Assembly: GCA_963631395.1 (NCBI GenBank)
Contig: CAVGQN010000005.1
Location: 8,446 to 72,445 of the forward strand
Reading direction: 5' to 3'
Length of the DNA: 64,000 nt
Origin: a bacterium
GTDB lineage: Bacteria; Bacteroidota; Bacteroidia; Bacteroidales; UBA3663
Part shown: in pieces, positions 1,920 through 31,343 of the stretch
Position numbering within the stretch: position 1 is the stretch's first letter
How the letters are laid out: every line of letters begins with the position of its first letter
The notes under the pieces: generated by a model
Database searches by the model: none
What the model was told of the DNA's origin: nothing
The model's input: the letters and a program-made list of their open reading frames with translations, nothing else
Made by a program: the position numbers and the translations under genes

Positions 1920-3487
1920 TCTCTAACGCGATATCTGTTATACAATTCGACCAAATGCTTGATATTGCAGCAATAGGTTACTTCTGAACCCTCGATGCCA
2001 CTGCAAAGCACACCGACCAGGCGATGCGATTTGTCAACTACAGGCGACCCGCTTTGTCCGCCTATGCCTATGGCTTGAATCTGAATCTGATTGTCGTCGG
2101 GCATCTTGCTAAGGGAGGCTTTGTGTATGGTAGGATGCAGTTCCTTGCCGTCGAAAGTCTGATATCCGACATAGCCGCCCATCGGATAACCGGTGGTGAT
2201 CAGGTCTTCTTCCTGTGGTTTCAGTGTTGTTTCGTCTACCCGTGCCTTCTCTATATCATAGACGGCTCCCATCTCTACAAGATAATCAGGCGTCTTGCGG
2301 GTGTTTAACCGAATGAGAGCGACGTCCTTTTGCGCGTCGCCTGATTCGGCTATCACCTGCGCTTGCTGAAGGTCAATTTGACTGTTGACTTTAGAACCTG
2401 TCAGACCGACTCCGAATAGGATGTGTCTGCCGCCTATCTCCACTGGAGAAATCTGATAACGGTGCAACCAGGCATTCGCTTCGGTTGCAGACAGTCGGCC
2501 TTCGTTTACAATCTCCTGTAGAATCTGAACCAGGTCGCCACTGGTGGACTGACGTGCTTTTTCCATCAGTTGCCGTATCTCTTCTTCCATCTTGGCGCTG
2601 CGATATTCCCAAGGTACAGCGATATGCCGGTTTGTGCCCATTTCGCCGTTTTTCGAGATGAAGAATGCGGTGCCATAATAACCGATGGGAGAGAGCCCTG
2701 TTGTGTTGGTTTGTGCCTTCAAATCGCCATCGGCGTCATAGCCTATGTACCATTTGTCCGGCCAAATATCTTTCAAGACTGTTTTGAATGGGTCGTCCGT
2801 CACGTTTATCTCAAAGTAATAACTGCCATAGACACAAGCGGAGGCATTTTCCATGGCCTGCACCGTCGCGGGAGAAACCGTACTGCTCCATGGGATTAAC
2901 TTCCAGGCACCCCACGCACAAGCCAAGACAAGCACAATTGCTGCGACGATGCCCACTATCTTGGGCAAGTTGTTGCTGGGTATAAACTGCGACAGATTGA
3001 CGGGCACTCCGCCGCACACAATGGCATCGCTCCGCTTGATCTGTTTGGTTTGTCCGTTGTTCAGACATACCCCATTGACTGTCGACCCGTTTTTGCTGTG
3101 GTCTTCCAACCAGGCTTTGCCATTGCGGTCTATCTTGAGCGTCGCATGGTAGCGGCTGACGGTATTGCCGGTTATCTGTATCTCATTGCGCATGCTGGTG
3201 CCGATGCCATAGACAGCCTTGTATTTCGACAAGTCTTCGGGCTGGGGAATTTGGCTCCATAACAGTTCGACGTCACCGAACCGAATGGCGTCGCCGCGCT
3301 TGATGGATACTTGCGTGCCGGGTTTGATGGGACGGTTCATTACGAATGTCCCGTTGTGGCTATTCTTGTCTTCCAGGAGGATGTCTCCGTTGTTGAGTAT
3401 GGTAATCTCGGCATGTAGGGCACTTGCCATATTGCTGTGAAGTACGATGTCACAGTTAGAGTCCCTGCCGACTTTTAGTAGTCTCAT
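1916..3487 (-). CDS. FHA-FHA-TM-trypsin-like serine protease (membrane-tethered)
   Basis: 523 aa. It has two FHA-like modules (LLKVGRDSNCDIVL...NSHNGTFVMN; TGNTVSRYHATLKIDRNGKAWLEDHSKNGSTVNG) and one hydrophobic helix (IVGIVAAIVLVLACAWGAWKLI). A chymotrypsin-fold domain follows, with His (GTNRHIA), Asp (KDVALIRL) and Ser (GGQSGSPVV) motifs. Confidence 0.85.
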   Translation of the reverse strand: MRLLKVGRDSNCDIVLHSNMASALHAEITILNNGDILLEDKNSHNGTFVMNRPIKPGTQVSIKRGDAIRFGDVELLWSQIPQPEDLSKYKAVYGIGTSMRNEIQITGNTVSRYHATLKIDRNGKAWLEDHSKNGSTVNGVCLNNGQTKQIKRSDAIVCGGVPVNLSQFIPSNNLPKIVGIVAAIVLVLACAWGAWKLIPWSSTVSPATVQAMENASACVYGSYYFEINVTDDPFKTVLKDIWPDKWYIGYDADGDLKAQTNTTGLSPIGYYGTAFFISKNGEMGTNRHIAVPWEYRSAKMEEEIRQLMEKARQSTSGDLVQILQEIVNEGRLSATEANAWLHRYQISPVEIGGRHILFGVGLTGSKVNSQIDLQQAQVIAESGDAQKDVALIRLNTRKTPDYLVEMGAVYDIEKARVDETTLKPQEEDLITTGYPMGGYVGYQTFDGKELHPTIHKASLSKMPDDNQIQIQAIGIGGQSGSPVVDKSHRLVGVLCSGIEGSEVTYCCNIKHLVELYNRYRVRE

Positions 3488-3506
3488 AGTTTTTGTCAGA
3501 TTAAAG

Positions 3507-4142
3507 TTAACCGATAGCTCTTAGTGTGGATTTAGAAGAATCCTCCATGACTGAGTCTTCCTTGGCATTGCCCTCGTCGGCGTTGTCTTTCTTTTGCAAC
3601 TTTTTAGTCGGAGTGGCCTTCTTCGTTGCCTTAATTGAATCTTGACGGGCCTTTTCTATCGAATCTTGAGCAACTTTAATTGAATCTTGGCGCTCAACGG
3701 TCTTGATGGAGTCAAGTTTCGCTGCCTCTTTTTGTTTGATGTCTGTTGAATCCGTCTTCTCGATGGCTAACGGACTTGCGTCGCCATTGTCACCCGAATC
3801 GTTCTGTAGGGACTTTGCGCCCCAGACAAGGCCCAATATGACTACAACAGCAGCGGCAGCACCGAGGGTGTACTTTATCCACTGGTTGGATTTTGGTACT
3901 TGGTCCCAATCCAATTTGGCCACATGCGCCAACGACACAATGTCCTTGCGCGTGACGGGGACGGGGACGTTTTGGGTAATCCGGATGCCATTGACATAGG
4001 TGCCGTTGCTACTCTGGTCGACGATGGTCATCTTGCCGGAGGAGGTGATGTTCAAGAGCGCGTGACGGCGGCTGATGACATCGGTAGAGTCGTTAATGAC
4101 TATGTCGCAGTTAAGGTCGCGACCGATGGAATATGTTTTCAT
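3507..4142 (-). CDS. FHA domain protein with a single TM helix and a low-complexity tail
   Basis: 211 aa. N-terminal FHA (YSIGRDLNCDIVI...SRRHALL...DQSSNGTYVNG), then a TM helix (LGAAAAVVVILGLVWGA). The K/D/S-rich tail carries 4 copies of QDSI(K/E)-like units. Confidence 0.8.
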   Translation of the reverse strand: MKTYSIGRDLNCDIVINDSTDVISRRHALLNITSSGKMTIVDQSSNGTYVNGIRITQNVPVPVTRKDIVSLAHVAKLDWDQVPKSNQWIKYTLGAAAAVVVILGLVWGAKSLQNDSGDNGDASPLAIEKTDSTDIKQKEAAKLDSIKTVERQDSIKVAQDSIEKARQDSIKATKKATPTKKLQKKDNADEGNAKEDSVMEDSSKSTLRAIG

Positions 4143-4164
4143 CCTTTTTATTATGTGTTTTACA

Positions 4165-5184
4165 TCAATTGTTATTGCTTGTTTGAGGGTTTGCTGTCGT
4201 GGCCGAATCTGCGCTCACGCTATCGCCCTTCAGCTTGAGCGAATCTACTACCGCGCACTCGGTTTTTTCGGCTTGCGGTACATTCCCTTTTTGCGTAAAG
4301 CACAAGGCCACACTGACGGCCAGGCCCACGATGCAGACGGCGATAAGTCCTATCAGTGAAAATTTGAGTTTTGGGCTCATCTTGGGTCTAAGTTCCGATT
4401 TTGTATTGGTTTCTACGATGGCAATGGTCATATTGTCATGACCGCCGCCAGCGTTGCGTCCCTTGCCGTCGATGACCGTCGCTATCTCGTCAGTGACTGT
4501 GCCGAGTGCGTGTTTCTTGTCCGATGCCATCCCAATCAGTTCGGCTTCGGATACGGACCCGTGTATGCCGTCGGTCGTCAGAACAAAGCGGTCTCCCCGG
4601 TCGTAGGGCAGTTCGATGATGTCGACGTCCATGTCCGGCTTGATGCCCAAAGCGCGGGTGATGACATTCGACTGGGCCGAAAGTCTTGCCTGCTCTTCTG
4701 TGATGACTTTTTGCTTGACCAAATCAAATACCATCGAGTGGTCGAAGGTGCGGAACACCTTGCTTTTGCCCCTCAACTGATAGACCCGGCTGTCACCGAC
4801 ATGTGCGACGATGGCAGACGCCTTGCTGATGAGCAGTACGGTACACGTCGACCCCATGCCCTTCAGGGCCGGTGTGTTGTTGCCGGCTTCGTGGATGGCC
4901 AGATTGGCGCGTCTGATAGCCTTTAACACAATATTCGTGGCCGTATCATCGGGATTGCCTTCCGTTATGCCGGTGATAATCTCACGGACGGCGATGGACG
5001 ATGCTGTCTTTCCTCCGGGACCGCCTCCCATGCCGTCGCATACGGTGACCACAAACCCGTAAGGCGTGTCACAACTGCCATAGGAGTCTTGATTTTCAGC
5101 ACGGCCACCTATCCGCGATTCAGCAAATCCGGTTACGAAGGTTGGCGTTTTTAGTTGTTGGATCAAATCCATAGTTGTTTTCAA
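4165..5184 (-). CDS. PP2C-family Ser/Thr phosphatase with a C-terminal TM anchor
   Basis: 339 aa with PP2C motifs (GRAENQDSY, VCDGMGGGPGG, LTTDGIHG, GGHDNMT) and a C-terminal hydrophobic helix (LIGLIAVCIVGLAVSVALCF). Its start codon directly abuts the stop of the upstream kinase gene. Confidence 0.9.
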   Translation of the reverse strand: MKTTMDLIQQLKTPTFVTGFAESRIGGRAENQDSYGSCDTPYGFVVTVCDGMGGGPGGKTASSIAVREIITGITEGNPDDTATNIVLKAIRRANLAIHEAGNNTPALKGMGSTCTVLLISKASAIVAHVGDSRVYQLRGKSKVFRTFDHSMVFDLVKQKVITEEQARLSAQSNVITRALGIKPDMDVDIIELPYDRGDRFVLTTDGIHGSVSEAELIGMASDKKHALGTVTDEIATVIDGKGRNAGGGHDNMTIAIVETNTKSELRPKMSPKLKFSLIGLIAVCIVGLAVSVALCFTQKGNVPQAEKTECAVVDSLKLKGDSVSADSATTANPQTSNNN

Positions 5185-6108
5185 TTAGTTTAGACCGAGC
5201 CATTTCTTCAATCGCTGCATTATCGTGGGCGGTGGCAACAAGGCTTCCGTCAAGGCTTCTCTGAACTCTCCGGCCGTCTGAAGCCTTTTGGACTGTTCTT
5301 TTTCCGTTGCCTTTGTAATGACGTTCATAATCCGTCCGGGTATTGCTTCGTGTGGGGGCAATGGGTCCCTTAACTGTCGGGTCAGCGTGTCGACCTCGGT
5401 ATCTGCATCAAACGGATTGGTGCCTGTCAGTATTTCGTAGAAGGTGATGCCCAGGGCATACAGGTCTGTGGCTGCATTGATCTGTACCGAACGGGATTTG
5501 TCTCTCAATATCTGCTCGGGCGCTGCATACTGAGGCGTTCCGATGAAGCCATATTGCGAGAATTTGTTGCCGTCGTTCATCCTGGCTATGCCCAGGTCCA
5601 TCAGCCGGATGTTCGAATCGCTTTCGACCATGATGTTGGAGGGCTTGATGTCGCGATGGATTACTCCTCTTGAGTGTATGTACTCCAAAGCATCCAGGAC
5701 CTGAAAGATGGCATGACAAATCTTTTGTACCCTGTCACTGCCCGTGAGAACGTCTTTGGCATACTCGTCGATGTTTTTGCCCGAGACGTATTTGCTGACC
5801 AGGAATATCGGACCGCTGTCGGGCGCATATTCACAGTAACCAATCATCTCGACAAGATTGTCGTGCCGGAAGGCCAAGGAGGCTTCCTGCCGGGCCCTTT
5901 CGCGAATCATCGGATTGTTGGAATAACTGTCCTTGACCCGTTTGATGGCCATGCGGGTCCCATCTTTGACGCGATAACCTAGATAGACAGTGCCCATAGC
6001 TCCACTTCCCAAGGGCATAGACGCAGGGTCATAGCAATACCATTGCCCCATGACGAAGAGGTAGATGTACGGGTCGTCCGGCCTCTGATATACGGTCTTG
6101 CTGCTCAT
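5185..6108 (-). CDS. Hanks-type Ser/Thr protein kinase, soluble
   Basis: 307 aa. G-loop GSGAMGTVY, AIKRV lysine, catalytic loop HRDIKPSN, DLG in place of DFG, and GTPQYAAPE. No TM helix. Confidence 0.9.
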   Translation of the reverse strand: MSSKTVYQRPDDPYIYLFVMGQWYCYDPASMPLGSGAMGTVYLGYRVKDGTRMAIKRVKDSYSNNPMIRERARQEASLAFRHDNLVEMIGYCEYAPDSGPIFLVSKYVSGKNIDEYAKDVLTGSDRVQKICHAIFQVLDALEYIHSRGVIHRDIKPSNIMVESDSNIRLMDLGIARMNDGNKFSQYGFIGTPQYAAPEQILRDKSRSVQINAATDLYALGITFYEILTGTNPFDADTEVDTLTRQLRDPLPPHEAIPGRIMNVITKATEKEQSKRLQTAGEFREALTEALLPPPTIMQRLKKWLGLN

Positions 6109-7757
6109 GGTCGGGTCGGCTTTAGGTTGGTCATTCGGCCTTTGATGGCTTGCGTATATTCTTTATCGCCGGCTTTGATGGCCAATTGCAGCGCTTTGTT
6201 CAGATACAGGTAAGCGGAGTCCGTATTGAATGTAGCACCGCGCCTCTTCGACTTGTAGTCGCACCCGAGTTCGAACAGAGATTTGTAGTCTTCGGAGTTG
6301 AGAGCTACGGCATTCTTCAACAGTCTGTGTGCTTCCTTGTTTTGGGCGCTTATACCGAGGTTGCTCCGGAAGAGAGCGATGGAATCGGCGAAAGTTCCGA
6401 TTTTGATGCTCTCCGGACTGTCAAAGTACAGACGGCTTAACAAGAAGACGGAACGGTAGTCGTTGGCATCAGACAGTTGCTTGAGCATGACGAGACCCTC
6501 ATCGGCAGTACTCCTATCGAGCAACAAGGCCAGGGCTTGGCGATACGATGGCTGTGGGGTCTCTGCCTCTTGGCTGCCAATAGTAGCCATCACTGCTTCG
6601 GCAGTCATCTGGTCAGAGGGAGCGTCGCTTTCTACTTGGTATAGACTTTCTTGGCCTAGGTTCTCTGCATACGCCGTAGGTTCGCTACTGGCTGCGTTTG
6701 GCGCAGCTGCATTGCTGCTTGACTGGTTTATTGCAAAGAGGGCAATTCCGACAACCGCTGCTGCGCTTCCGATAGCGATGCCGATGGCCTTCGAATTGAT
6801 TGCATTGGCTGGATATTGCAAGGGAACGAGCCGCTCTACTGCCACCCGAAACTCCGCTGCGCTCTGATACCGCTTGGAACGTTTCTTTTGTGTAGCGGTT
6901 TTGATGACCTCCCTAATCTGCTTTTGTTTCACATTGCCTAATGGCATTTTCTTCGTGAGTTGCATCTCAAGCACCTCTGCCATTTCACCGTCAAAAGGAA
7001 CCTTGCCGACCAGCAGTTGGTATAATAGAACGCCGACGGCATAGAGGTCAGTGGTTGCATTTTGCGAGTCCGGCAGACCCCTTACCAATTCCGGGGCTGC
7101 GTATTTGGGCTTCCCCATGAATTGCCCATCCACCGTGTACGATGTTTCCTTGGTGTTGTTACCATTGAGTTTCTTCGCGATGCCGAAGTCTATCAACTTG
7201 ATTCTCCCGTCGGAGGTAACCATAATGTTGGAGGGGTCGATATCCCGATGGATATACCCGGCATCATGAAGGGCCATCAACCCGGAGAGGAGATTGCGTA
7301 TTATGGTGAGGGCAAAATGGTAGGGGTCGGTTTGTCGCTTCCCATATAACTCTTGTGCAAAAGGAATAATATTCCCTTTGTGGTCATAGGTCTTGCCTTC
7401 CAGTAACTTGTCCAGGGTGACTCCATGCAGGTACTCACTAACGACATGATAGCGTATCACGGGTTGACCAAGCGCGTCCGTCCCTTTTATTTCCAGGAAG
7501 CCAAGCATCTCGATGAGATTGTCATTGCGGAGTTGGACGGCCGCTTCGCGTCGGGCACGCGCAATCACACGAGCAGGCAAATCGCTATAAAGGAACTTTA
7601 TTGCGACTTCTCTGCGCTGATTGTTATACTCATTACATTGCCAGCCTTTGTAGACCTTACCCATACCGCCTTCGCCTAATGGCGTGTCGGTCGGGTCGTA
7701 TTCGTAATAGATGCCCAATCTGCGCTCTTGATCCCCTTGTAATCTTACGGTAGCCAT
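6105..7757 (-). CDS. Hanks-type Ser/Thr protein kinase with a TM helix and an extracytoplasmic Sel1/TPR-like domain
   Basis: 550 aa. G-loop GEGGMGKVYKG, VAIKF, catalytic loop HRDIDPSN, DFGIA, GKPKYAAPE. TM helix IGIAIGSAAAVVGIALFAI. The C-terminal ~170 aa have Sel1/TPR-like helical repeats (FLLSRLYFD..., LFELGCDY..., YLYLNKALQLA). A 4-nt ATGA overlap links it to the downstream kinase gene. Confidence 0.9.
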   Translation of the reverse strand: MATVRLQGDQERRLGIYYEYDPTDTPLGEGGMGKVYKGWQCNEYNNQRREVAIKFLYSDLPARVIARARREAAVQLRNDNLIEMLGFLEIKGTDALGQPVIRYHVVSEYLHGVTLDKLLEGKTYDHKGNIIPFAQELYGKRQTDPYHFALTIIRNLLSGLMALHDAGYIHRDIDPSNIMVTSDGRIKLIDFGIAKKLNGNNTKETSYTVDGQFMGKPKYAAPELVRGLPDSQNATTDLYAVGVLLYQLLVGKVPFDGEMAEVLEMQLTKKMPLGNVKQKQIREVIKTATQKKRSKRYQSAAEFRVAVERLVPLQYPANAINSKAIGIAIGSAAAVVGIALFAINQSSSNAAAPNAASSEPTAYAENLGQESLYQVESDAPSDQMTAEAVMATIGSQEAETPQPSYRQALALLLDRSTADEGLVMLKQLSDANDYRSVFLLSRLYFDSPESIKIGTFADSIALFRSNLGISAQNKEAHRLLKNAVALNSEDYKSLFELGCDYKSKRRGATFNTDSAYLYLNKALQLAIKAGDKEYTQAIKGRMTNLKPTRP

Positions 7758-7821
7758 GAAGTTTGGGTTAGTTTATATGCCTGTCATTTAAGTCTATAGA
7801 ATATGCCTGCAGTTTCTTGCC

Positions 7822-8601
7822 TTATAGGCCTACAGTGCCACCGCCTCCGTAATTGTTGGATGAATCCGTGTCTACGGTAGAACTTGACGGACGGTTGCCT
7901 CCATTATATGATGAGTCGGGCCCGTTGAATCGAGGCGGGAAGTCTTGCTCGTTGTGTGTGGTATAGCCCTGGCCGGTCGTTTGGTTATTGGTATTGACTT
8001 TCTCTTCATGCTCGTTCCTTACGTCATAGAAACTTTCAGATACATGCAGGCCGAGAGCCTTTGTGTCGATAAGCAAAAGCAGCAAATCGTAGTTCTCGCC
8101 GATGGTGATTACGTCTCCGTTCACGCATTCGATAGGCCGGGCCATAGAAACGCTGTTCTCATTGACAAGAGTTCCATTGGTGGAGCCCAAATCAGAGATG
8201 GTGGCTTCTGTCTTCTCCGGCTTCTTCATCTTGTTGATGTGCAGGTTGGCATGCCGATGAGAAACGGTGCCTTCGCCAAGGATGATGTCGCAATCAGGCG
8301 AATTGCCGATAATGTTCTGACCGATGTGCAATGGCCAGTATTCACCGGCTGCAGTACGCGAAATCGAGTACAGGAATCCGACAATGGGTTTCCCGTTGCC
8401 TTGCGATGGCTGTGGGGATTGGGAGCATCTCTGAGCGGATGCACCTTCTGCTTGAGATGCCATCCCGGGGAAGACAGTCCCGTTGGCTTGTCTTTGATTG
8501 GACGAACGAGTGTATTCTGGGCTTCCTCCAGAAAACGACTGATTGGGATTGAAATCATCTTCTTGACCTAATCCCGGGAAAACGGTTTTGTTTTGTGACA
8601 T
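7822..8601 (-). CDS. FHA domain protein, soluble, with disordered termini; first gene of the operon
   Basis: 259 aa with a central FHA (WPLHIGQNIIGNSPDCDIIL...SHRHANL...DLGSTNGTLVN). Both termini are low-complexity and G/S/N/Q-rich. Confidence 0.8.
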   Translation of the reverse strand: MSQNKTVFPGLGQEDDFNPNQSFSGGSPEYTRSSNQRQANGTVFPGMASQAEGASAQRCSQSPQPSQGNGKPIVGFLYSISRTAAGEYWPLHIGQNIIGNSPDCDIILGEGTVSHRHANLHINKMKKPEKTEATISDLGSTNGTLVNENSVSMARPIECVNGDVITIGENYDLLLLLIDTKALGLHVSESFYDVRNEHEEKVNTNNQTTGQGYTTHNEQDFPPRFNGPDSSYNGGNRPSSSTVDTDSSNNYGGGGTVGL

Positions 8602-8649
8602 AATGTGTAGTTTTTGTGGCGTTGAGGTCTAGGTTGGGTATCGTTAGGT

Positions 8650-8666
8650 ATCTCTTGTTTAGAGAT
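8650..8666. repeat. Left inverted-repeat / recombinase core-like site (ATCTC-TTGTTTA-GAGAT)
   Basis: Read directly from the sequence. It has 5-bp inverted arms around a 7-bp asymmetric spacer. It matches site R at 8930-8946 as an inverted repeat in 16 of 17 positions. Confidence 0.5.
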
Positions 8667-8909
8667 TTGGAATAAGGATAAAGATGTGGTTGTCTGATGC
8701 TTATAATATCGCTCCCTGTCAACTTCCTAAACATTATTCTTGATTACGGATTATTCTTATTGTTGTTTTAATTGATAATATAAGGGCGAAGGCAAGGAAT
8801 AATATATTGTTCTGGCTGAATTTGGCATATCCATGCGGCAAAATCATGGTATTTGCTGAAAGATTTTCTGTTTTTGCTCAGCGTTGTGTGGTTGTTAGGA
8901 AATTCTTTG

Positions 8910-8917
8910 TACCTTTG
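8910..8917 (+). promoter_or_regulatory. Candidate Bacteroidetes -7 promoter box TACCTTTG (TAnnTTTG)
   Basis: It is the only TAnnTTTG match on either strand in 8602-9046. Weak -33-like GTTG motifs lie ~20-25 bp upstream. It points away from the FHA operon in the orientation given. Confidence 0.3.
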
Positions 8918-8929
8918 TCCCGGGTAATT

Positions 8930-8946
8930 ATCTCTAAACAAAAGAT
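8930..8946. repeat. Right inverted-repeat / recombinase core-like site (ATCTC-TAAACAA-AAGAT)
   Basis: Read directly from the sequence. The spacer TAAACAA is the exact reverse complement of the site L spacer TTGTTTA. It lies ~100 bp from the stop of the tyrosine recombinase gene. Confidence 0.5.
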
Positions 8947-9046
8947 TTGGGAGATAGTGGATAGGATGTTCCTCGGTGTCGATGGATGCTGAGGTTCTTT
9001 TTAAAGAGACACTTCTTTTTAAATAGGAGTGGTTGCGTATCCTTGA

Positions 9047-10282
9047 TTACTGATTCAGCCTTTCTAGAATAGCCGCGTTGGCCTGATCTACGACCGAGGT
9101 ATCGAGACTGGCAAGATAGATTCTTGTCGTCGTTTCCGAGTTGTGCCCCATGCCCTCGCTGATTACGCTCAACGGAATGACTTCGGTTTGGGCAATGGAA
9201 GCCCAACTGTGACGTGCCACATACATGGTTAAGTGAATCCGAAGTTGGAGCAAGCCCGATATCTGTTTGAGACTTCGGTTAATGTTGTAGCCTACATTGA
9301 GATAGGCGTACCGCTCGTTGATGCCTACAGACTTGATGACGGGAAGCAGATAGGCGGATTCGTTTGTGGGGTATTTGTTCATGATGCGCTGCATGTCGTC
9401 GGTCCATTGGATGGTGAGCTGTTGGCCCGTCTTATGGCGACGGTAAGATATTCGCCCGTTCCTTAAGTCTGATTTCTTCAGATATGCCATATCTATGAAA
9501 CTCATGCCACGGAGATAGAAACTCATCATAAACATGTCGCGGGCAAAGTCCAGGGCGGGTGCGTGAGATAAATCCAAGTCTTTGATTTGTCTGACAACGG
9601 CCAAGGGTAAGGCTCTTTTGACGGTCTTGTCAATTCCGGTATAGATGCGCCGAAACGGCATGCGGTTTTCGATAACTCCGTCCTCGACAGCGCGGTTGTA
9701 TACGGCACGGAGGATGCGGGCATAAAAGGAAATGGTATTGGGAGTGACTCCCCGCTTGCGCTGCCATGCTTCGTATGCTTCCATAATTTTTGAGTCGAGG
9801 CAATCGAGCATCAAGTCTTCGCCTTGTCTGAATTTCCTGAAACTGTTGAGGGTGGCCCGATGCGTTTCGGCTGTTCTGATTTTCCCGTTCTTCTTTAGTC
9901 TGACAATGACGTTTTCCATATAGTTGAAGAGCGAGTACTCGTGCAGGTAGCTGACGAATTCGTCCACGACATCGTCGGCGGTGTAGGAATAGCCATCGAG
10001 GTCCAGCCGTCGAATGACTTTTGTCAGCCGTTCGACGTCTCCTCTGATGCGCTCGCGTATGGAAAGGACAATGGACTTGCGCTCGCTCTTGCGGGAGGTC
10101 GTAACCATACCACGTTTCTCATCCCATTCGGATGGGAATACGTGGTAGGAAGTTGACAACTGGCGCACTTTGCGCTCATGAATCACTTGATAATAGACAG
10201 TGCCTTCGCCATCTGCAACGGACGATGGCCGGAATTTAACTTTTATGGATGCCATAGGTATGTTGTTGTTTGACATTTCCAC
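9047..10282 (-). CDS. Site-specific tyrosine recombinase/integrase (Bacteroidetes type)
   Basis: 411 aa. Arm-binding-like N-terminus (MASIKVKFRPS...VYYQVIHERK), a SAM-like core-binding region, and a catalytic C-terminus with VARHSWAS and GHNSETTTRIYL (Tyr nucleophile context). Confidence 0.9.
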   Translation of the reverse strand: MEMSNNNIPMASIKVKFRPSSVADGEGTVYYQVIHERKVRQLSTSYHVFPSEWDEKRGMVTTSRKSERKSIVLSIRERIRGDVERLTKVIRRLDLDGYSYTADDVVDEFVSYLHEYSLFNYMENVIVRLKKNGKIRTAETHRATLNSFRKFRQGEDLMLDCLDSKIMEAYEAWQRKRGVTPNTISFYARILRAVYNRAVEDGVIENRMPFRRIYTGIDKTVKRALPLAVVRQIKDLDLSHAPALDFARDMFMMSFYLRGMSFIDMAYLKKSDLRNGRISYRRHKTGQQLTIQWTDDMQRIMNKYPTNESAYLLPVIKSVGINERYAYLNVGYNINRSLKQISGLLQLRIHLTMYVARHSWASIAQTEVIPLSVISEGMGHNSETTTRIYLASLDTSVVDQANAAILERLNQ

Positions 10283-13761: not shown

Positions 13762-13872
13762 CTTACGGTTTTTATTTCAGCACTTCTTTGTTTCAGCACA
13801 TCTTTTTTATTTCAGATCCATCAACATAGGCCCTTATTTCAGCACTTTTATTTTAGTGCCTCATTTCAGCAC
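13762..13872. repeat. Five copies of the murC 3' terminus motif (minus strand GTGCTGAAAT[G/A]A), filling the murC-ftsQ gap
   Basis: Plus-strand ATTTCAGCAC is at 13774-13783, 13836-13845 and 13863-13872. The last copy is the real murC end. A shorter TTTCAGCAC copy lies at 13791-13799, and the variant ATTTCAGATC at 13809-13818. Confidence 0.8.
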
Positions 13873-19066: not shown

Positions 19067-19088
19067 ATCAGTATTGCTTTCTTATTTA

Positions 19089-19195
19089 TGTCAAATCAAA
19101 CCTGTTGTCAAATCAAACCTGTTGTCAAAATCAAAACTATTGTCGAAGTCAAATGTCCTATAGTGTCAAAGTCTTGTTTGTCTAAGTCAAACCTC
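19089..19195. repeat. Tandem ~17-bp repeat TGTCAAATCAAACCTGT in the mraY-murD gap (2 perfect and ~4 degenerate copies)
   Basis: Perfect copies are at 19089-19105 and 19106-19122. Degenerate copies start at 19123, 19141, 19164 and 19180. Confidence 0.8.
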
Positions 19196-19205
19196 TCCCG
19201 TGCCG

Positions 19206-20528: not shown

Positions 20529-20566
20529 CCTTTATGTTGTTTTCTTGTGCTTGATTCTTTATATCG

Positions 20567-20720
20567 TTTTCTTTCGCTTGCCTTTTGCGGTTTGCCAAGT
20601 TCCTTCTGCCCGGTTTCTCCCGCCCGGCCATTAGCTTTCCCGGCTATCGGCCGAAGCCGGACCTTGCCAGAAAGTCTTTGGCCGAAATTGGCTATCGACA
20701 GAAACTGGCCTTTTGCCGTC
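20567..20720. repeat. Loose ~23-bp periodic T-tract/GCC repeat in the murE-mraY gap
   Basis: T-tract starts at 20567, 20591, 20614 and 20636 are in phase, then decay. The motifs (TTTGCC, TTTCCCGG) resemble the arrays at 24888-25200 and 27785-27880. Confidence 0.45.
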
Positions 20721-22206: not shown

Positions 22207-22362
22207 ATCTGACTTATGTTTTTATTTTCTAGTTTATGTGTTGTCTTTGTCTTTTTGTCTTTTGCTTCTCTAGCTTCTGCTTCCCTGACCTCGGTTTGTC
22301 TTTCAGACTCGACTCTTCTCAAGCGTTAGCCGTCCAGTCGGGGCTCTTTGCTCGGTCGGGGG

Positions 22363-24522
22363 TTATTTCAAGTCGAGGCTCACGGTGCCGTTGTGGAACG
22401 TTTGCGTCTTGACCGTGCCGAAGCCGTGTATTTCGACGTGCGTGTAGCCGGCCGTCTCGAGCATCAGCAGGGCGTCGCTCGCGCCCATGCCCCTCACGTC
22501 GGGCAGTCCGCCCATACCGGCGTCAGCCAGGTTGGCTTCGCGCTTGACGACGGCGGCGCGAGGTGCCACTGAGTCGGCTGGCAGGTCGTCCAAAGTGCGG
22601 TGGCCGTGCAGGGCGTAGACTCTCTCGGCAAAGCGCCGGAACACCGGACCGGCCATAAAGCCGCCGCCGGGCAGGCCGCCCTTGTAGCCGTTGGTGTTGA
22701 TGACCACAATGCCGCAGTAGGCAGGTTCGTCGGCAGGGAAGTAGCCTGCAAACGAGACGTTGTGGCCGTTGCCCGAATACAGGCCCGTGAGGGGGTTGCG
22801 CCGCTGGGCCGTTCCCGTCTTGCCCGCTATCCTGACCTTGTCGCTCTCGGCCCCGTCGCGGATGAAGATGCCGTTGCGGTTCTTCTCGGTTCGGGCAGTG
22901 CCTTTCGTCACCACGTCTTCGAGCGCTTCGCGCACCTCGCGCAAGGTCTCGTGGCTGCATATCTTCCGGTTGATGACCGTCGTCTCCTGCTTGTACAGTT
23001 CCTCGCCGTCCTTCACTACGCGCTCCACGATGTAGGGGCGAACCAGGCATCCGTCGTTGGCGATGGCGTTGTAGAACTGCAGGATGTAGATGCCGGGAAT
23101 GTCCGTCTCGTAGCCGTAGCTGATCTGGGCCAGCGACATCTTGCGCCAGGCCCGATCGCCCACCCGTCGGTGGCGTGCGCTGAGGGCGTTGGGGAATTCC
23201 TTCTTGAAGGCTTCGATGGGCAGGATGTTTTTGGTTTCCAGTTCCTTGACCTCCTCGTGGCTTAAGGCGTGGTCGTCGAGGAATCCGATTCTGTTCACGG
23301 CATCCAGGTAAGCCTTCGGGTCGTCTTCGTAGGCTGCGGTGGTGAGCTTGGCGATGGCTATGTTGCTCGACTGCTCGATGCCCTGGCGCGCCGTGCAGAC
23401 CCCGACGGGGTGGTCGTCGCGTATGGACTTGCCGTAGTAGTTGAACGTGCCGTAGTGGCCGGGATAGTTTTCGGTGTCGACCTTCGTGTCGGGCTTTATC
23501 TTGCCGTTGTCCAGCAGAATCATGTAGCTGACGGTCTTGAAGGTAGAGCCCGGTGCGCCCAGGTCGCTGAAGAGGTGGTTATAGTCCTCCGAGCAGGTTC
23601 CGTTGCGGTTGTTGCGCAGGTTGGAGATGGCCCGTATCTTGCCCGTCTTGACCTCGACGAAGGCGGCCCAGCCCTCTGCAGCGTTCAGCTTGACGAGCTG
23701 GGTGGCCAGTTCCTGGTCCAGCATTTCCTGCATCTCCATGTCGAGGGTCGTGTAGACGTCGGCGCCGTCGACGGGCTGTTCGATGGTAACGGTCGACATG
23801 CGTCCGTGAATCCTCTGCAGGTAGCCTTTCCCCGGGGTGCCGGCCAGATAGGCGTCAAAGCCCTGTTCGATGCCACCGCGTCCGTGTCCTGCGCGGGCTG
23901 TCGAGTCCTTGCCGTTTTTGGCCCATACCGAACCGATGGTGGCCGAGGCCATTCGGTTCTCCCCGTACGGGCGGTAGCGGTGGGCGCGTTCCTCTTTAAT
24001 CAGACCGTTGCGCAAGGCCGACTTGTTGAAGTAAGGTTGCTTGCGCAGATGCCGGTAGTCGAGATAGGGCATGGCGCGGAAGATCCTGTGGTAGCCCTTG
24101 TGCTGCCTGTAGGCTTCGCGTATCTCTGCGCCGAACTGCTCGGCGCTCTTGACGTTGTACTTGGGGTCGCCGTATGCGTTGGCCAAAGCCAGGCTGCCCT
24201 CTCCGTGTGCCCCGAAGTATTTGGCTATCGTGTCGGCCGGGATGTTGATTTTGCCATTGGCGTCGGGGCGGGTAGTGGAGTTGAAGTCCAGGAAGACGTC
24301 ATACTCCGGCAGGCTGCCAGCCAGCATCTCGCCGTGGTTGGCGAAGATGAATCCCCGGACGGGGTCGATGGGCTTGGCGTCACGCTTCAGTTTTTCCACC
24401 TTGGCGCGGTAGTCGTCGCCGTGCACGACCAGCGTGTGCCACGTCTGTATCCAGATAAACGCGGCATAGAACAGTAGGCAGGCGCCTATGAAGTAGAATC
24501 GCTGTTTGTAACTCAGTTTCAT
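22363..24522 (-). CDS. ftsI: Division-specific class B penicillin-binding protein (FtsI/PBP3-like) with a C-terminal PASTA-like module
   Basis: 719 aa with an N-terminal TM helix and the transpeptidase motifs STFK (PGSTFKTVS), SSN (EQSSNIA) and KTGT (AGKTGTAQ). The last ~60 aa (LPDVRGMGASDALLMLETAGY...VSLDL) resemble a PASTA domain. Confidence 0.9.
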   Translation of the reverse strand: MKLSYKQRFYFIGACLLFYAAFIWIQTWHTLVVHGDDYRAKVEKLKRDAKPIDPVRGFIFANHGEMLAGSLPEYDVFLDFNSTTRPDANGKINIPADTIAKYFGAHGEGSLALANAYGDPKYNVKSAEQFGAEIREAYRQHKGYHRIFRAMPYLDYRHLRKQPYFNKSALRNGLIKEERAHRYRPYGENRMASATIGSVWAKNGKDSTARAGHGRGGIEQGFDAYLAGTPGKGYLQRIHGRMSTVTIEQPVDGADVYTTLDMEMQEMLDQELATQLVKLNAAEGWAAFVEVKTGKIRAISNLRNNRNGTCSEDYNHLFSDLGAPGSTFKTVSYMILLDNGKIKPDTKVDTENYPGHYGTFNYYGKSIRDDHPVGVCTARQGIEQSSNIAIAKLTTAAYEDDPKAYLDAVNRIGFLDDHALSHEEVKELETKNILPIEAFKKEFPNALSARHRRVGDRAWRKMSLAQISYGYETDIPGIYILQFYNAIANDGCLVRPYIVERVVKDGEELYKQETTVINRKICSHETLREVREALEDVVTKGTARTEKNRNGIFIRDGAESDKVRIAGKTGTAQRRNPLTGLYSGNGHNVSFAGYFPADEPAYCGIVVINTNGYKGGLPGGGFMAGPVFRRFAERVYALHGHRTLDDLPADSVAPRAAVVKREANLADAGMGGLPDVRGMGASDALLMLETAGYTHVEIHGFGTVKTQTFHNGTVSLDLK

Positions 24523-24887
24523 TCGACTACAATGGGTGGTTCGTCAGCCAGTATCAACTTGGCCTTGCTGCTTATCTTGCTTCTGACGATTTCGGGTTTG
24601 TTCTTGCTTGTCAGTTCGCCCCAGGTGGCGATGCTTGTGTAGCGCACGTCGGCCAGTTCCTGCTTCAGCGTGCTGATGTCGGCGATGATATCCTCGTAGG
24701 TGTAGCGCATCTGCACGTGGCTGTAGAGGAGGAAGAGCACAAAGATGACCTTGCCCAAGTGCTTCTGGTAGAAAGCCTTGTTGAAGGGCGACGAGCTGCC
24801 GTCCAACCCGTTGTGGGCTGACTTCAGCAAGCCGTCCAGTCCGTTGTGGGTGTTCTTGATCAAAGTGTCAATCTTGTCCTTTTTCAT
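24519..24887 (-). CDS. ftsL: FtsL-like cell division protein (Bacteroidetes type)
   Basis: TM helix (VIFVLFLLYSHV), then a coiled segment (STLKQELADVRYTSIATWGEL). The stop overlaps the ftsI start. I prefer the internal start MKKDKID at 24887, because the extra 24 codons of the track ORF (to 24959) only translate the intergenic repeat array. The N-terminus carries an 11-aa tandem duplication (IKNTHNGLDGL / LKSAHNGLDGS). Confidence 0.55.
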   Translation of the reverse strand: MKKDKIDTLIKNTHNGLDGLLKSAHNGLDGSSSPFNKAFYQKHLGKVIFVLFLLYSHVQMRYTYEDIIADISTLKQELADVRYTSIATWGELTSKNKPEIVRSKISSKAKLILADEPPIVVE

Positions 24888-25200
24888 CTTGTTTTGCTCT
24901 TGTCGTTTTGCAAAGTCTTGTCCTTTTGTTTTGCAAAGTCTTGTCCTTTTGTCTTGCAAAGTTTTCCCCCTATCCGGGAAGCCTCGTTTCTTTGCCCGAG
25001 AAAAGTTTGGTTTTCTTGCTCGCGAAGCTTAGTTTCTTTGCCCGAAAACCTTGGTTTTTCCCTTGGCAAAACGCCGTTGTTTTTTCCTGCTCGAAAAGCC
25101 CCGTTTTTTGACTCCAGTTAGGAAAAATTATTTTCCCAGTTGGGTTTCAAAAAAAATCCAGTTGGGCTGCAAAATTTTCCCAGTTGGGCTGCAAAATCCG
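24888..25200. repeat. Array of ~13 degenerate 22-27-bp tandem units (TTTTCyy...G.AAA...) filling the whole rsmH-ftsL gap
   Basis: T-tract starts at 24906, 24929, 24947, 24962, 24987, 25011, 25033, 25055, 25080, 25104, 25131 and 25175. Perfect internal duplications: TTTTGCAAAGTCTTGTCC (x2) and CCAGTTGGGCTGCAAAAT (x2). Confidence 0.8.
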
Positions 25201-26142
25201 CTAGCTCTCGGCCTTTCGGACGGCGACGCGGAGTTTTGCGCTTCGGGAGCGCGGATTCTCCTCCTGTTCCTCGGCGCTTGCCGTGATGGGCTTGTTGTTG
25301 ACGGCCTTGAGCGGCGCGATGACCCGGCCGTAGAAGTCCTGTTCCACCTTGCCGTCGGCGTGCCCGGATCGGATGACGTTCTTCACGATGCGGTCTTCGA
25401 GCGAATGGTAGGTCATCACAACCAGCCGGCCGTCGGGGGCGAGACACCGCACGGCGTCCTGCAGCATCTCCTCAAGCGCCTGCATCTCGTGGTTGACCTC
25501 GATGCGGAGGGCCTGGAAGGCCTGGGCCAGTTCTTTCTTCTGGGCCCGCGGGTCGACCAGGGGCAGCAGAGCTTCGCGCAGGTCGCCGGTCGTGGCGATG
25601 GGCCGGCTCTGACGCAGGCGGACCAGGGTCTGGGCGATGCGGCGGGCCTGGCGCAGTTCGCCGTAGAGGGCGAAGATGTGGGCAAGGTCTTCCTCTGTGT
25701 AATTGGCCAGTAGTTCGGCGGCCGTCATTCCCGCGCGGGTGTTCATGCGCATGTCGAGGGGCGCGTCCATGCGGAAGGCGAAGCCTCGCGAGGCGTCGTC
25801 CAGGTGGTGGCTCGACACGCCCAGGTCGGCGAGCAGTCCGTCAATGTGCTCCACGCCGTAGTAGCGCATCCAGTTGCGGAGATAGCGGAAGTTGCTGCGC
25901 ACGAAGGTGAACTTCCCGCCGCGGCTGGCGTCCGGGTCGTCAGACTCCGGGCCGAAGGCGTTGCGCTCGGCATCGGGGTCCTGGTCGAAGCTGTACAGGT
26001 GGCCGTTGGGGCCCAAGCGGTCGAGGATGGCGCGGCTGTGCCCGCCGCCGCCGAAGGTGACGTCCACGTAGATCCCGTCCGGGCGGATCTGCAGACCTTC
26101 CAGACATTCCTTGAGCATGACGGGGTTGTGGTATTCGGACAT
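25201..26142 (-). CDS. rsmH: 16S rRNA (cytosine1402-N4)-methyltransferase RsmH (MraW)
   Basis: 313 aa with HNPVMLKECLEGL, DVTFGGGGHS and DLGVSSHHLD. Confidence 0.95.
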   Translation of the reverse strand: MSEYHNPVMLKECLEGLQIRPDGIYVDVTFGGGGHSRAILDRLGPNGHLYSFDQDPDAERNAFGPESDDPDASRGGKFTFVRSNFRYLRNWMRYYGVEHIDGLLADLGVSSHHLDDASRGFAFRMDAPLDMRMNTRAGMTAAELLANYTEEDLAHIFALYGELRQARRIAQTLVRLRQSRPIATTGDLREALLPLVDPRAQKKELAQAFQALRIEVNHEMQALEEMLQDAVRCLAPDGRLVVMTYHSLEDRIVKNVIRSGHADGKVEQDFYGRVIAPLKAVNNKPITASAEEQEENPRSRSAKLRVAVRKAES

Positions 26143-26280
26143 AGACGCTGTTGTTTGTTGAGTTTGTACGTTGTCGATTTAGGGTGTAAAATTATGTATT
26201 TCCTCCGAGATGTGCAAGGAAAGGGTAAAAAAACTCGTCTTTTGCCGGCCTAAAATGAGTGCGTAAGGTGATTTTGTCAT

Positions 26281-26453
26281 TTCCAAACTCCACATAGTGG
26301 AGAGTTGTGTGTTTTCCTTGAGGGAAAGTTGAGCTTTTTCCCAGTGGAGGGTTTCGTGTTTTTCCGTAGGAAAGTGGCGCGTTTTCCCAGTGGAGAGTTA
26401 TGCGTTTTCCCGGAAGAGAGTTTCGTGTTTTTTCGGAGGGCGAAGGGTTGCTG
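26281..26453. repeat. Array of 7 tandem 23-bp units (consensus TTTTCCCAGTGGAGAGTTTCGTG) upstream of rsmH
   Basis: Units are at 26312-26334, 26335-26358, 26359-26381, 26382-26404, 26405-26427 and 26428-26453, plus a degenerate leading unit at 26281-26311. Confidence 0.85.
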
Positions 26454-26652
26454 TTCTCGGCGATGGTCAAAGGCCGGCGCGGGCGGGGAAGAAGCCCTTG
26501 GAAAGAGCGCGCTCAACGGCCGGAATTCCGCGGCTTGTCAAGCTGATAAAACGGCGTATGGAAATAATTGTGATATAAACACTTTCGCGTCTCTATCTAT
26601 ATGCGGCGTTCATCTGCCACGTCCGCTAGGTTTTTGCCGCTTGGCGAGGGAC

Positions 26653-27468
26653 TTAGAACTCAATATAATGCAGCAGTTTTTCGAGCTTTTCGTCGGCGAA
26701 TACGCCCAGTTGCTCGAGGTCGGACTGGCCGTGCAGGTTGCCGTTCAGTTGGCGCCATTGGAAGATGGCTTTCACCTCGTTGTACTCCAGGTAAGGGTGC
26801 CGCAGCAGTTCCCTGAATGTCAGGCGGTTGACGTTCAGGCGGTTGACGAGCCGGGCGTCGGCGTAGAACCATTCTCTGCACCAGACGTCGAGGTAGGGGA
26901 GGGCACTGTCCCAGGTGAGCACTTCGCGCAGCTGCTCGGGTGAATAGAAACCGCCGAGCTTCTTCCTGTATTGGAGAATGGTTTCGGCCGTACGGGCTCC
27001 GATGCCCGGAATGCGCACGAGCGTGGCGCTGTCGACGGAGTTCAGTTCCTGGCGCACCACCGAGGCGAACTTGGGCGTCTTTGCATTGTCGTCGGTCAGG
27101 ACCTTGGCTATGGTTTCGGCTTTCCCCTGTCCGCTTTGGGCGAGAATCCCGTCCAGGTTGCCCTTGCGGCCTGTTTTCGTGCGGTCGCTTGCTCTCGTGC
27201 CGTTTGTCGGCCTGGCGTTGGTCGTGGCCGAGGCTTTTCGGCGGCGCGCGCCGGTCGAGTCAGCTTCAGCTTCCGCCCGAGCCGAACCGTCCGACCCCTG
27301 GCCGAGCCTTTCGAGTACGGCCAGGCGGTTCTCCAGCGTGGCTATTCGGGCTTCTTGCGCCTCTATCCTCACGCGCATGCGCGCCTCGCGCCTGTACACT
27401 AATGTAAATACGATGAACAGGCAGATGGCGAACAGCCAGCGGTATTTGTAGTTGAAGCTTCTTTGCAT
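26653..27468 (-). CDS. ComEA-like helix-hairpin-helix DNA-binding protein
   Basis: Start taken at MQRSFNYKY (27468); the track ORF extends to 27537. It has a TM helix (WLFAICLFIVFTLVY), a coiled segment, and HhH motifs (LVRIPGIGARTAETILQYR; a second degenerate HhH in the NRLNVNRLTFRELLRHPYL region). Confidence 0.7.
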   Translation of the reverse strand: MQRSFNYKYRWLFAICLFIVFTLVYRREARMRVRIEAQEARIATLENRLAVLERLGQGSDGSARAEAEADSTGARRRKASATTNARPTNGTRASDRTKTGRKGNLDGILAQSGQGKAETIAKVLTDDNAKTPKFASVVRQELNSVDSATLVRIPGIGARTAETILQYRKKLGGFYSPEQLREVLTWDSALPYLDVWCREWFYADARLVNRLNVNRLTFRELLRHPYLEYNEVKAIFQWRQLNGNLHGQSDLEQLGVFADEKLEKLLHYIEF

Positions 27469-27654
27469 ATTGTGCGGTCCGGGAGGGGAAATCTCTCTTG
27501 GTGCAAAGATAGTGTTTTTGGCCGAAACTTCCGGCAAACGTCAAAAAAATAGCGGTTTTTTACCTCAATTCTTGGAAGATGTTGAAATATTGCCTATCTT
27601 TGCACCCGAAAAATCCGAATGCAACACGCGCGGAGTCGCGTGAAGCACAACCCT

Positions 27655-30916: not shown

Positions 30917-31012
30917 GCGTTTTCCCGGCATGCATGAGCAGAACCTTGCCGGCAAGCATGGGCAGGAGTTTGTCAGCATGCATGAGCAGGAAGAAGACCC
31001 GAGAAGCCGGAG
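30917..31012. repeat. Four tandem 24-bp units (GCGTTTTCCCGGCATGCATGAGCA-like)
   Basis: Units are at 30917-30940, 30941-30964, 30965-30988 and 30989-31012. GCATGCATGAGCA occurs twice. Confidence 0.65.
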
Positions 31013-31343
31013 ATGTTTGTTATCTTTGGGTTGCAAATCCGCCGTCTTGCTTGGATTATTAACGGATTAACGGACTTTTTCGGGGAAAACACGTGGTAAA
31101 TACTAAAAATTGTTTAATTTTGTACCACAAAGATTAAATTATTGGAAAAGCTACAATAAGTCTAAACCATGAGCCGGAATTGCCGTGCCCGGGGCAGGAC
31201 GAGAATGCAGCGGGAAAGAGGTAACGATTGGAAAATGAGAAAGTTAGGGAAAGAAATAAGATTGTAAAGAAGGTGAACAATACAGGGAAAGATTACTATT
31301 ACATACAACCGTGATAAATTTACTTATTAAATCTAACTTTATT

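Follow-up and report, generated by a model that had tools for sequence, protein, structure and literature searches.

A Strain-Variable 22-bp Repeat Array Between rsmH and ftsL in an Uncultured Bacteroidales Lineage: A Probable Minisatellite With Dispersed Palindromic Relatives

The rsmH-ftsL Gap and Its Repeat Array

The DNA considered here (the window) is a stretch of 64,000 nucleotides of a bacterial contig (CAVGQN010000005.1) whose left half is taken up by a minus-strand dcw cluster, and our subject is the repeat array that separates two genes of this cluster, rsmH and ftsL. The rsmH gene (25201-26142, minus strand) encodes a 313-aa protein of the MraW methylase family (Pfam MraW, E=8e-96), and ftsL (24519-24887, minus strand) encodes a 122-aa protein that matches Pfam FtsL_2, with the ATG at 24887 as its true start. 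From the rsmH stop to this ATG there are exactly 313 bp (24888-25200), filled wholly by an intercistronic minisatellite of ~14 spacer-less, head-to-tail units of 15-26 bp on the minus strand. The array runs directly from one gene to the other, with no unique, non-repetitive flanks. Every unit opens with a run of A on the sense strand (a run of T on the plus strand), and the sense strand of the gap is 38% A at 43% GC, compared to 24% A in coding sequence.

A phased tandem array occupying the entire gap had been described from the letters alone (the original prediction), and the description holds under formal analysis. When base identity at each lag was compared with 1000 dinucleotide-preserving shuffles, the autocorrelation peaked at lag 22 (0.45 vs. 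0.27 expected, z=6.4), with a similar value at lag 23 (z=5.7) and harmonics at 44-46 and 66-68. Tandem Repeats Finder (TRF) agrees and delimits three sub-arrays, at 24905-24962 (period 23), 24974-25057 (period 22) and 25130-25197 (period 22). By unit type, the minus strand can be divided into sub-array A (25110-25200; four units of 22, 21, 23, and 25 bp of the CCYAACTGG(G)AAAA type), sub-array B (24966-25109; six degenerate units of 24, 26, 24, 21, 25, and 24 bp of the form AAAA..G/C..TTTTCG..GCAAAG) and sub-array C (24888-24965; AAAAGGACAAGACTTTGCAAAAC units of 15, 23, 23, and 17 bp, the final one partial). Both of the perfect local duplications pointed out earlier were recovered, with TTTTGCAAAGTCTTGTCC repeated at 24906 and 24929 and CCAGTTGGGCTGCAAAAT repeated at 25158 and 25180. 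In addition, 12 nt of the sub-array C unit (AAAAGGACAAGA) match ftsL codons 2-5 exactly, and the FtsL N-terminus contains a 33-bp tandem duplication (24798-24863, minus strand) that gives an 11-aa repeat, THNGLDGLLKS / AHNGLDGSSSP, in a lineage-specific tail. Taken together, these two features indicate that the whole junction is a slippage hot-spot.

The regular recurrence of A/T tracts had also been read as strong intrinsic curvature, and phased tracts producing curved DNA with a structural role was the leading idea of the original prediction. The mean predicted local bend of the gap does lie at the 99.5-99.97th percentile of all 313-bp segments of the 64 kb, which are mostly coding, under three wedge models (absolute bend values are approximate), and AA/TT spectral peaks occur at ~21.5-24 bp, with an AA-only peak at 11.25 bp. 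However, the bend of 15.9-16.5 degrees does not exceed the 14.0-14.6 +/- 1.4-1.8 degrees of dinucleotide and block shuffles (p=0.08-0.2), the ratio of end-to-end to contour length is the same as in the shuffles, and the half-unit period of ~11.3 bp does not match the helical repeat of 10.5 bp. The curvature is therefore compositional, a matter of AA/TT content and not of phasing, and we consider a structural role for curved DNA very improbable.

A sliding scan of the whole window for arrays with a period of ~22-23 bp detected one other, at 26296-26431 (minus strand) upstream of rsmH, made of ~6 units of 23 bp such as GGGAAAACGCATAACTCTCCACT with a 46-bp super-period. It has CACTGGGAAAA in common with sub-array A. 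Between it and rsmH lie ~150 bp that contain a TAATTTTA box and are probably the promoter region; the array sits upstream of this conserved putative rsmH promoter region, and both are near-invariant among strains, with stable copy number. Of the four other related arrays that had been announced, this one is clearly related, whereas a set of four was not borne out. The other dcw gaps are repeat-built, as was noted earlier, with short repeats of periods 8, 13-19 and 18 bp.

Variation Among Strains and Related Species

The locus was compared across 14 related species (L-numbered loci), in 10 of which (all but L010, L011, L013, and L014) the ftsL start could be resolved. The rsmH and ftsL genes overlap by ATGA in six species (L002, L003, L005, L006, L007, and L009) and are separated by 4-48 bp in another four (L004, L008, L012, and L016). 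Relatives whose RsmH is 72-82% identical show one or other of these arrangements, and in Xylanibacter brevis the gap measures 17 bp. Because the nearest species have an overlap or so short a gap, the gap of the window is derived, and the earlier view that an insertion at this point of the operon is unusual is supported.

Contigs encoding the window's exact FtsL, or RsmH variants at least 90% identical, were found in 18 assemblies, among which there are 13 alleles of the gap. A sister clade of seven assemblies has a 176-bp gap in two alleles, with approximately three units of the A type besides a few that are B/C-like. The window's own clade comprises 11 assemblies and 11 different alleles, with lengths of 263, 268, 285, 286, 286, 287, 289, 297, 309, 313, and 313 bp (the 297-bp allele includes a run of N). 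Length therefore differs among strains of this clade, a comparison that the original prediction had proposed, over a range of 263-313 bp. These alleles differ by whole units, with 3-5 units of the A-type and from 1 to at least 5 of the C-type; the copy number of sub-array B is mostly stable, with frequent inter-strain single-nucleotide polymorphisms (SNPs), and SNPs are frequent among the clade's alleles generally. Several contigs with an identical FtsL protein carry different arrays, and several short-read contigs break off inside the array. All alleles found in the window's clade share the final 16-17 nt upstream of the ATG (..ACAAGAGCAAA(A)CAAG), the gap of the sister clade ends slightly differently (...AGAGCAAAAAG), and A stands at -3 and -6 before the ftsL ATG.

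These alleles also bear on the idea that the region is coding, either for a small conserved protein or for extra N-terminal residues of FtsL. Open reading frames (ORFs) do cross it, including a 146-aa ORF with a TTG start (24519-24959), a 61-aa minus-strand ORF (24884-25069) and others on the plus strand. Against this, the alleles differ by indels of 21-23 bp, not multiples of 3, whereby the frame is lost, no ORF is conserved, homologues of FtsL align from the ATG at 24887 and gene calls elsewhere start there. The repeat does run into the ftsL ORF listed for the window, as had been observed; its TTG at 24959 is not the real start, and given the unit indels upstream of the ATG and the alignment of FtsL from that ATG, the TTG-start ORF is an artifact. 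The chance that the region is coding is practically nil.

A Dispersed Palindromic Element in Prevotella

Sub-array A has relatives elsewhere. A scan of metagenome contigs for CCCAACTGGGAAAA-N6-12-CCYAACTGG returned 44 loci, none of which holds the window species' rsmH or ftsL. The motif is the center of a conserved module of ~72 bp made of three 22-bp CCYAACTGGGAAAA units, for example TCTAACTGGGAAAAATAATCTG CCCAACTGGGAAAATATTTTTT CCTAACTGGGAAATTATTTTTT followed by CGCAGTTAAC, and one group of human-gut contig loci shares an exact identity of 31 nt with the window in other contexts. An nhmmer profile built from the dispersed copies only, with the window left out, matches the window twice, with E=3.9e-9 for 25112-25145 and E=4.8e-5 for 25157-25188, as well as the three units of the sister clade (E=5.8e-13). 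Sub-array A is therefore homologous to the dispersed element family, and on this sequence evidence its units can be shown to descend from a dispersed palindromic Prevotella repeat.

The module is found in at least 10 different intergenic contexts, some of them from the same assembly, and related repeats occur at two sites in the window. These contexts are between a BspA-like gene and an AAA ATPase gene, between an AAA ATPase gene and greA (assigned by eye from the N-terminal sequence), between convergent M16 peptidase and DEAD helicase genes, in the carB/topB, rimM/dxr, and pflB/pflA spacers, upstream of valS, in an hsdR region, at a GNAT gene and on a fecal contig named "Bacteriophage sp." The labels BspA-like, AAA ATPase, M16 peptidase, and DEAD helicase come from Pfam and that of topB from its NCBI name; the remainder were assigned by eye from translations. 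Three proteins neighboring the module are named Prevotella in NCBI nr. The unannotated phage-labeled contig carries the same three units in an intergenic position and is uninformative on a phage origin. A BLAST search of PLSDB with the dispersed element gave no match and no Rfam family lies at it. The sole Rfam match in the metagenome loci is an abiF RNA (L094, 9255-9292; 52.7 bits), which is unrelated to the repeat.

In structure, the module is a palindrome in which the 8-mers TTTTCCCA and TGGGAAAA alternate every ~11 bp, and the 22-bp direct period is a consequence of this alternation. Flanks of ~45 bp are common to four groups of dispersed copies (groups A-D, not to be confused with the sub-arrays), but not to L102, L109, L119, and L130. 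At the M16/DEAD locus the module always has three units, in every readable strain except L154. A comparison of L103, L104, and L120 with L130 and L153-L157 shows that some strains have, and others lack, a 212-bp segment at this locus, within which lies a 23-bp array of variable length (TTCCTCAGTTGGCGCATTTTTGC, 2.7-4.7 copies). From the same junction onward (after GAGGTAGAG), the DNA of L154 is different, with a DarT gene and without the module. The locus gives the impression of a hot-spot for recombination or integration.

The palindrome is also the main argument for a function at the RNA level, whereby the array, and especially the hairpin of its A part, would be an element of the dcw mRNA (a stabilizer, RNase processing site or partial terminator) that sets the expression of ftsL and downstream genes independently of rsmH, with unit number tuning the effect. 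REP/BIME elements act in this manner in Escherichia coli operons. The ~72-nt module folds as a single hairpin (z=-6.2) and the A part of the array can also form one long hairpin (z=-2.3), in 8 of ~10 contexts the downstream gene has CCCAACTGGG on its sense strand, and related copies occupy the operon spacers pflB-pflA and rimM-dxr. However, the module folds equally well from the other strand (z=-5.8), which marks a DNA palindrome and gives no RNA-specific signal, and the 346-nt sense RNA of the locus is not significantly structured (z=-1.6). The same applies to sub-arrays B and C (z=-1.4 to -1.7, not significant) and to the upstream array, while the leader adjoining the ftsL ATG is unpaired in the minimum free energy fold. 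A scan of the sense strand within 24888-25200 found no intrinsic terminator and Rfam identified no family in the window besides a tRNA-Ser, both of which count against an RNA element. Finally, an array that is missing in sister species and has 11 alleles in 11 assemblies is unlike a tuned element. We regard this explanation as unlikely, albeit the least unlikely of the functional roles proposed for this array by itself.

Binding of a protein has less in its favor. Here, the 22-bp direct repeats would be operator sites or an internal promoter for ftsL-ftsI, recognized by a regulator of the LytTR type or a nucleoid-associated protein. On the plus strand, the A units read CCCAGTT(G/A)GG every 22 bp (25113-25188), reminiscent of VirR boxes, which have the form CCAGTT-N15-CCAGTT (PMC4747519), and the spacing is that of LytTR sites, 9-bp direct repeats with spacers of 11-13 bp (PMC4005675; PMC6193735), a resemblance only. 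The related array upstream of the rsmH promoter region and one weak Bacteroidetes-type -33/-7 match at 25130 can be added. On the other hand, CCAGTT is read on the strand opposite to that of rsmH and ftsL, heading into the rsmH 3' end, and no -7 box comes after it, and the "tail" of the dispersed element, ACAGTTAAG, is an inverted palindrome arm. No LytTR gene was detected among the 14 window ORFs scanned against Pfam, the motif occurs in just 4 of ~14 units, and the number and sequence of units vary freely among strains. A single promoter-like match in AT-rich DNA is within chance (there are 18 in the window), and the absence of the array from sister species together with its 11 alleles in 11 assemblies argues against any sequence-specific protein platform. 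An operator or internal promoter is thus improbable.

Specific candidates of this kind fared no better. An array of Bacteroidetes promoters (TTG-N19-TAnnTTTG) implies a TTTG-TTTG distance of ~27 bp and not 22, with one 9/10 match in the gap; a sigma-70 scan found no promoter in the gap; and a sigma-54 promoter fits poorly, since GG-N9-GC misses the proper spacing by one and the dispersed copies lack the motif. The MraZ operator has 3-4 direct GTGGG-type repeats with a 10-bp period upstream of mraZ, whereas this array has a period of 22-23 bp in a clade that lacks mraZ.

A Preference for Units of ~22 bp

The period of the array is not peculiar to this gap. TRF applied to the window and ~1 Mb of Prevotellaceae-dominated loci yielded 70 sequence families of tandem repeats, 18 of which have a period of 21-23 bp where a uniform null predicts ~3 (p ~3e-9); small further clusters occur at 10-11, 32-33, and 44-46 bp. 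The preference may derive from two helical turns or from 8-bp arms with 3-nt loops. Other dcw gaps of Segatella baroniae (L076), L012, and L060 contain arrays of 20-23 bp. Those of S. baroniae, at 5396-5483 (ftsL-ftsI) and 7726-7801 (ftsI-murE), are similar C/A-rich 21-bp arrays (AACACTTCACATTCCCCATTC) without dyad symmetry.

Several further arrays were encountered. At a site of X. brevis flanked by a dGTPase-like gene (HD_assoc domain) and one for a GNAT protein (L064, 1160-1360), a 22-bp array consists of two abutting sub-families, and at what by eye seems to be the same site in L049, L051, and L054, the unit sequences are unrelated and the 22-bp period is the same. Similar 22-bp arrays lie at approximately the same distance from rsmH in L030 and L052. 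Six Joint Genome Institute loci with Ga01815xx-type names (L095, L097, L099, L108, L113, and L128) carry 21-bp AAAATCGCACCTGCGAAAATA units followed by AAAATCCCAACTGGGAAAATA units; those of L128 stand directly upstream of a gene for a small sigma-like protein preceded by a Shine-Dalgarno sequence, and the flanks of most of the others match. Judging from these sequences, the architecture of alternating arms may also exist outside gut Prevotella, possibly in phage.

These observations invite a more ambitious explanation, namely that ~22-bp "palindromic lattice" repeats, with 8-mer arms such as TTTTCCCA/TGGGAAAA alternating in orientation every 11 bp, are an undescribed class of Prevotellaceae/Bacteroidales elements for which a dedicated mechanism fixes the unit, spreads the module and expands hypervariable arrays that tune genes such as ftsL. 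The mechanism could consist in a protein that mobilizes or binds the repeats, or in replication or an RNA process that depends on a hairpin, with a unit of two helical turns, and it would extend to essential operons. The idea that every 22-bp unit has a dyad was rejected, as a formal test was significant in ~4-5 of 22 arrays and not in those of the window, where unit-level dyad symmetry gave p=0.17-0.48 in the gap's three sub-arrays and 0.60 in a repeat at 30925-30989. The dyad is retained solely for sub-array A and the dispersed element. We put forward such a class, taken as a whole, tentatively and with considerable doubt.

Proposed History and Significance

The reading that we favor as probable is that the gap is a lineage-specific hypervariable minisatellite, or variable-number tandem repeat (VNTR), with no sequence-specific function. 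Units of at least 10 bp stand head-to-tail above chance and copy number is polymorphic by whole units, which are the features that define a VNTR. The history would begin with an ancestral ATGA overlap of rsmH and ftsL, as still seen in the nearest species. A copy of the three-unit CCYAACTGGGAAAA palindromic element would then have come to rest at the ATGA junction; the sister clade still has about three such units in its 176-bp gap. In the window's clade the array would subsequently have grown and diversified as replication slippage, or else unequal recombination of neighboring units, added and removed whole 21-23-bp units, including at microhomology with the first ftsL codons.

The array would be co-transcribed with the dcw operon, and its main effect is likely to be passive, in that a spacer rich in A and low in structure would release ftsL from its coupling to rsmH. 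It may be tolerated on the grounds that ribosomes of Bacteroidia need neither Shine-Dalgarno pairing nor translational coupling, and together with the conserved last ~17 nt it could provide ftsL with an A-rich, weakly structured leader. In Bacteroidia, translation initiation depends on low structure and upstream adenines (PMC6847099; PMC13000457).

A number of points weigh against this reading. From one species or context to another, the three-unit element keeps its sequence and its number of units, which looks like selection or recent mobility, and its descendant in this gap may retain activity; at the same time, no terminal inverted repeats or target duplications are definable for the element. 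The family-wide preference for ~22 bp (also 33 and 44) goes beyond what neutral slippage alone would produce and hints at structural or functional constraint. The 176-bp length is stable across the seven assemblies of the sister clade and, since the upstream array is stable as well, hypervariability is not a general property of these arrays. Moreover, both co-transcription and the lack of a sequence-specific function are inferred.

If the minisatellite reading is correct, even so tightly coupled a point of the cell-division operon as the rsmH-ftsL junction can be split in Bacteroidia by hundreds of bases of unstable repeat, which fits the Shine-Dalgarno-independent translation of this class. 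The alleles (176, 263 ... 313 bp) would constitute a natural series in which the effects of leader length and structure on an essential gene can be followed. The array would also allow strains of an uncultured Prevotellaceae species from gut or rumen to be told apart at high resolution, and it would be a cause of contig breaks in short-read assemblies.

Neighboring Genes and Other Repeats in the Window

Downstream of ftsL, the ftsI ORF (22363-24522, minus strand) has Pfam matches to penicillin-binding protein domains, and it is followed on the minus strand by murE, mraY, murD, ftsW, murG, murC, ftsQ, ftsA, and ftsZ, to ~10452, with labels that derive from order and size only. Upstream of rsmH lies a ComEA-like HHH_3 gene (26653-27537), and the right half of the window consists of long plus-strand ORFs. 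RsmH is 97% identical in one assembly, 72-82% identical in several metagenome-assembled genomes and ~65% identical in Prevotella, Segatella, and Xylanibacter; going by this protein, the organism would be placed among uncultured Bacteroidales adjoining Prevotellaceae.

The window's clade lacks mraZ, with the ComEA-like HHH gene followed directly by rsmH (window 26143-26652; loci L002-L008 were also covered). Relatives in Prevotella keep mraZ, preceded by 10-bp arrays of 3-4 copies (AAAAGTGGGG, AAAGTGGAGG) that resemble MraZ boxes, and true MraZ-box arrays (AAAAGTGGGG x3.4) are found in the Prevotella loci L026, L028, L039, and L078. An inverted pair, CTCCAC TAT GTGGAG, at ~26288-26302 of the window is possibly a remnant of an MraZ box.

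Beyond the far end of the cluster, a tyrosine integrase gene (9047-10282; Arm-DNA-bind_5 and Phage_integrase) stands just after ftsZ and adjoins an AT-rich gap of 445 bp (8602-9046). The region 414-10282 also contains a cluster of genes for three FHA-domain proteins, two Ser/Thr kinases and a PP2C phosphatase. The long dcw gaps at 13762-13860, 19067-19205, 20529-20718, and 22207-22362 are each 35-45% A on the sense strand and are built from short local repeats (GTGCTGAAATAA, GGTTTGATTTGACAACA x3, and the AAGACAAA type); the ftsI-murE gap ranges from 156 to 164 bp among strains. The repeat at 30925-30989 is a 24-bp tandem repeat of 2.7 copies (CCGGCATGCATGAGCAGAACCTTG, with a GCATGC palindrome) in a 685-bp intergenic region that precedes a long plus-strand ORF starting at 31311.

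Comparison With Known Systems

The sole published counterpart that we found is BrickBuilt of Porphyromonas gingivalis (Klein et al., 2015), and the literature searches turned up nothing on Prevotella. BrickBuilt elements consist of 23-nt spacer-less repeats in 19 intergenic copies with long predicted stem-loops, they have leader and tail flanks with IS5-like ends and their copy number ranges from 1 to 22.8 between strains; 22- and 23-nt repeats were also noted in P. gingivalis W83 (PMC4596501). As compared by description and not by unit sequence, the similarities include occurrence in Bacteroidales, a strictly intergenic position, spacer-less imperfect tandem units (21-26 vs. 23 bp), strain-variable copy number, long stem-loop potential, related copies at dispersed sites across contigs and no Rfam match. 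The array of the window differs in lacking a conserved leader and tail with IS5-like terminal inverted repeats, in its heterogeneous units (three sub-families) and in its place inside an essential operon. A possible IS5/BrickBuilt-like terminal repeat was discounted as coincidence, since AAGACTTTGCAAAA resembles GAGACCTTTGCAAAA in an orientation and position unfit for the end of an element. If our reading holds, the excess of 21-23-bp periods (also 33 and 44-46) and the three-unit element suggest that BrickBuilt is one case of a wider, undescribed phenomenon.

Palindromic intergenic repeats are familiar from other bacteria as REP/BIME, ERIC, Correia, and RUP/BOX elements. The dispersed relatives of sub-array A resemble REP/BIME in being short imperfect extragenic palindromes, including in operon spacers and between convergent genes, which form clusters of alternating orientation and have the potential for mRNA hairpins. 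They differ in their lattice of 8-mers alternating every 11 bp (a 22-bp period) and in expanding to long hypervariable arrays, and no RAYT-type transposase is known to be associated with a 22-bp lattice element, whereas REP/BIME repeats go together with a RAYT (TnpA_REP) transposase and number hundreds of copies per genome. The operators of LytTR regulators (AgrA, ComE, and VirR boxes) likewise have direct repeats every 21-22 bp, with a CCAGTT core on one strand; however, the strand and position relative to a promoter are wrong here, there are far more than 2-3 repeats and the motif is part of a palindrome.

A general likeness is to VNTR loci, such as those used in multiple-locus VNTR analysis (MLVA typing), in which units of more than 10 bp stand head-to-tail, alleles differ by whole units and perfect neighboring copies arise by local re-duplication. 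Unlike a typical VNTR, this array lies between two translationally coupled essential genes and belongs to a family-wide class of ~22-bp units. Overall, bacterial intergenic minisatellites and palindromic repeats are already known as a class, and what stands out here is the position of this array inside the rsmH-ftsL junction, with its extreme polymorphism among strains, and the undescribed 22-bp repeat phenomenon of Prevotellaceae to which it draws attention.

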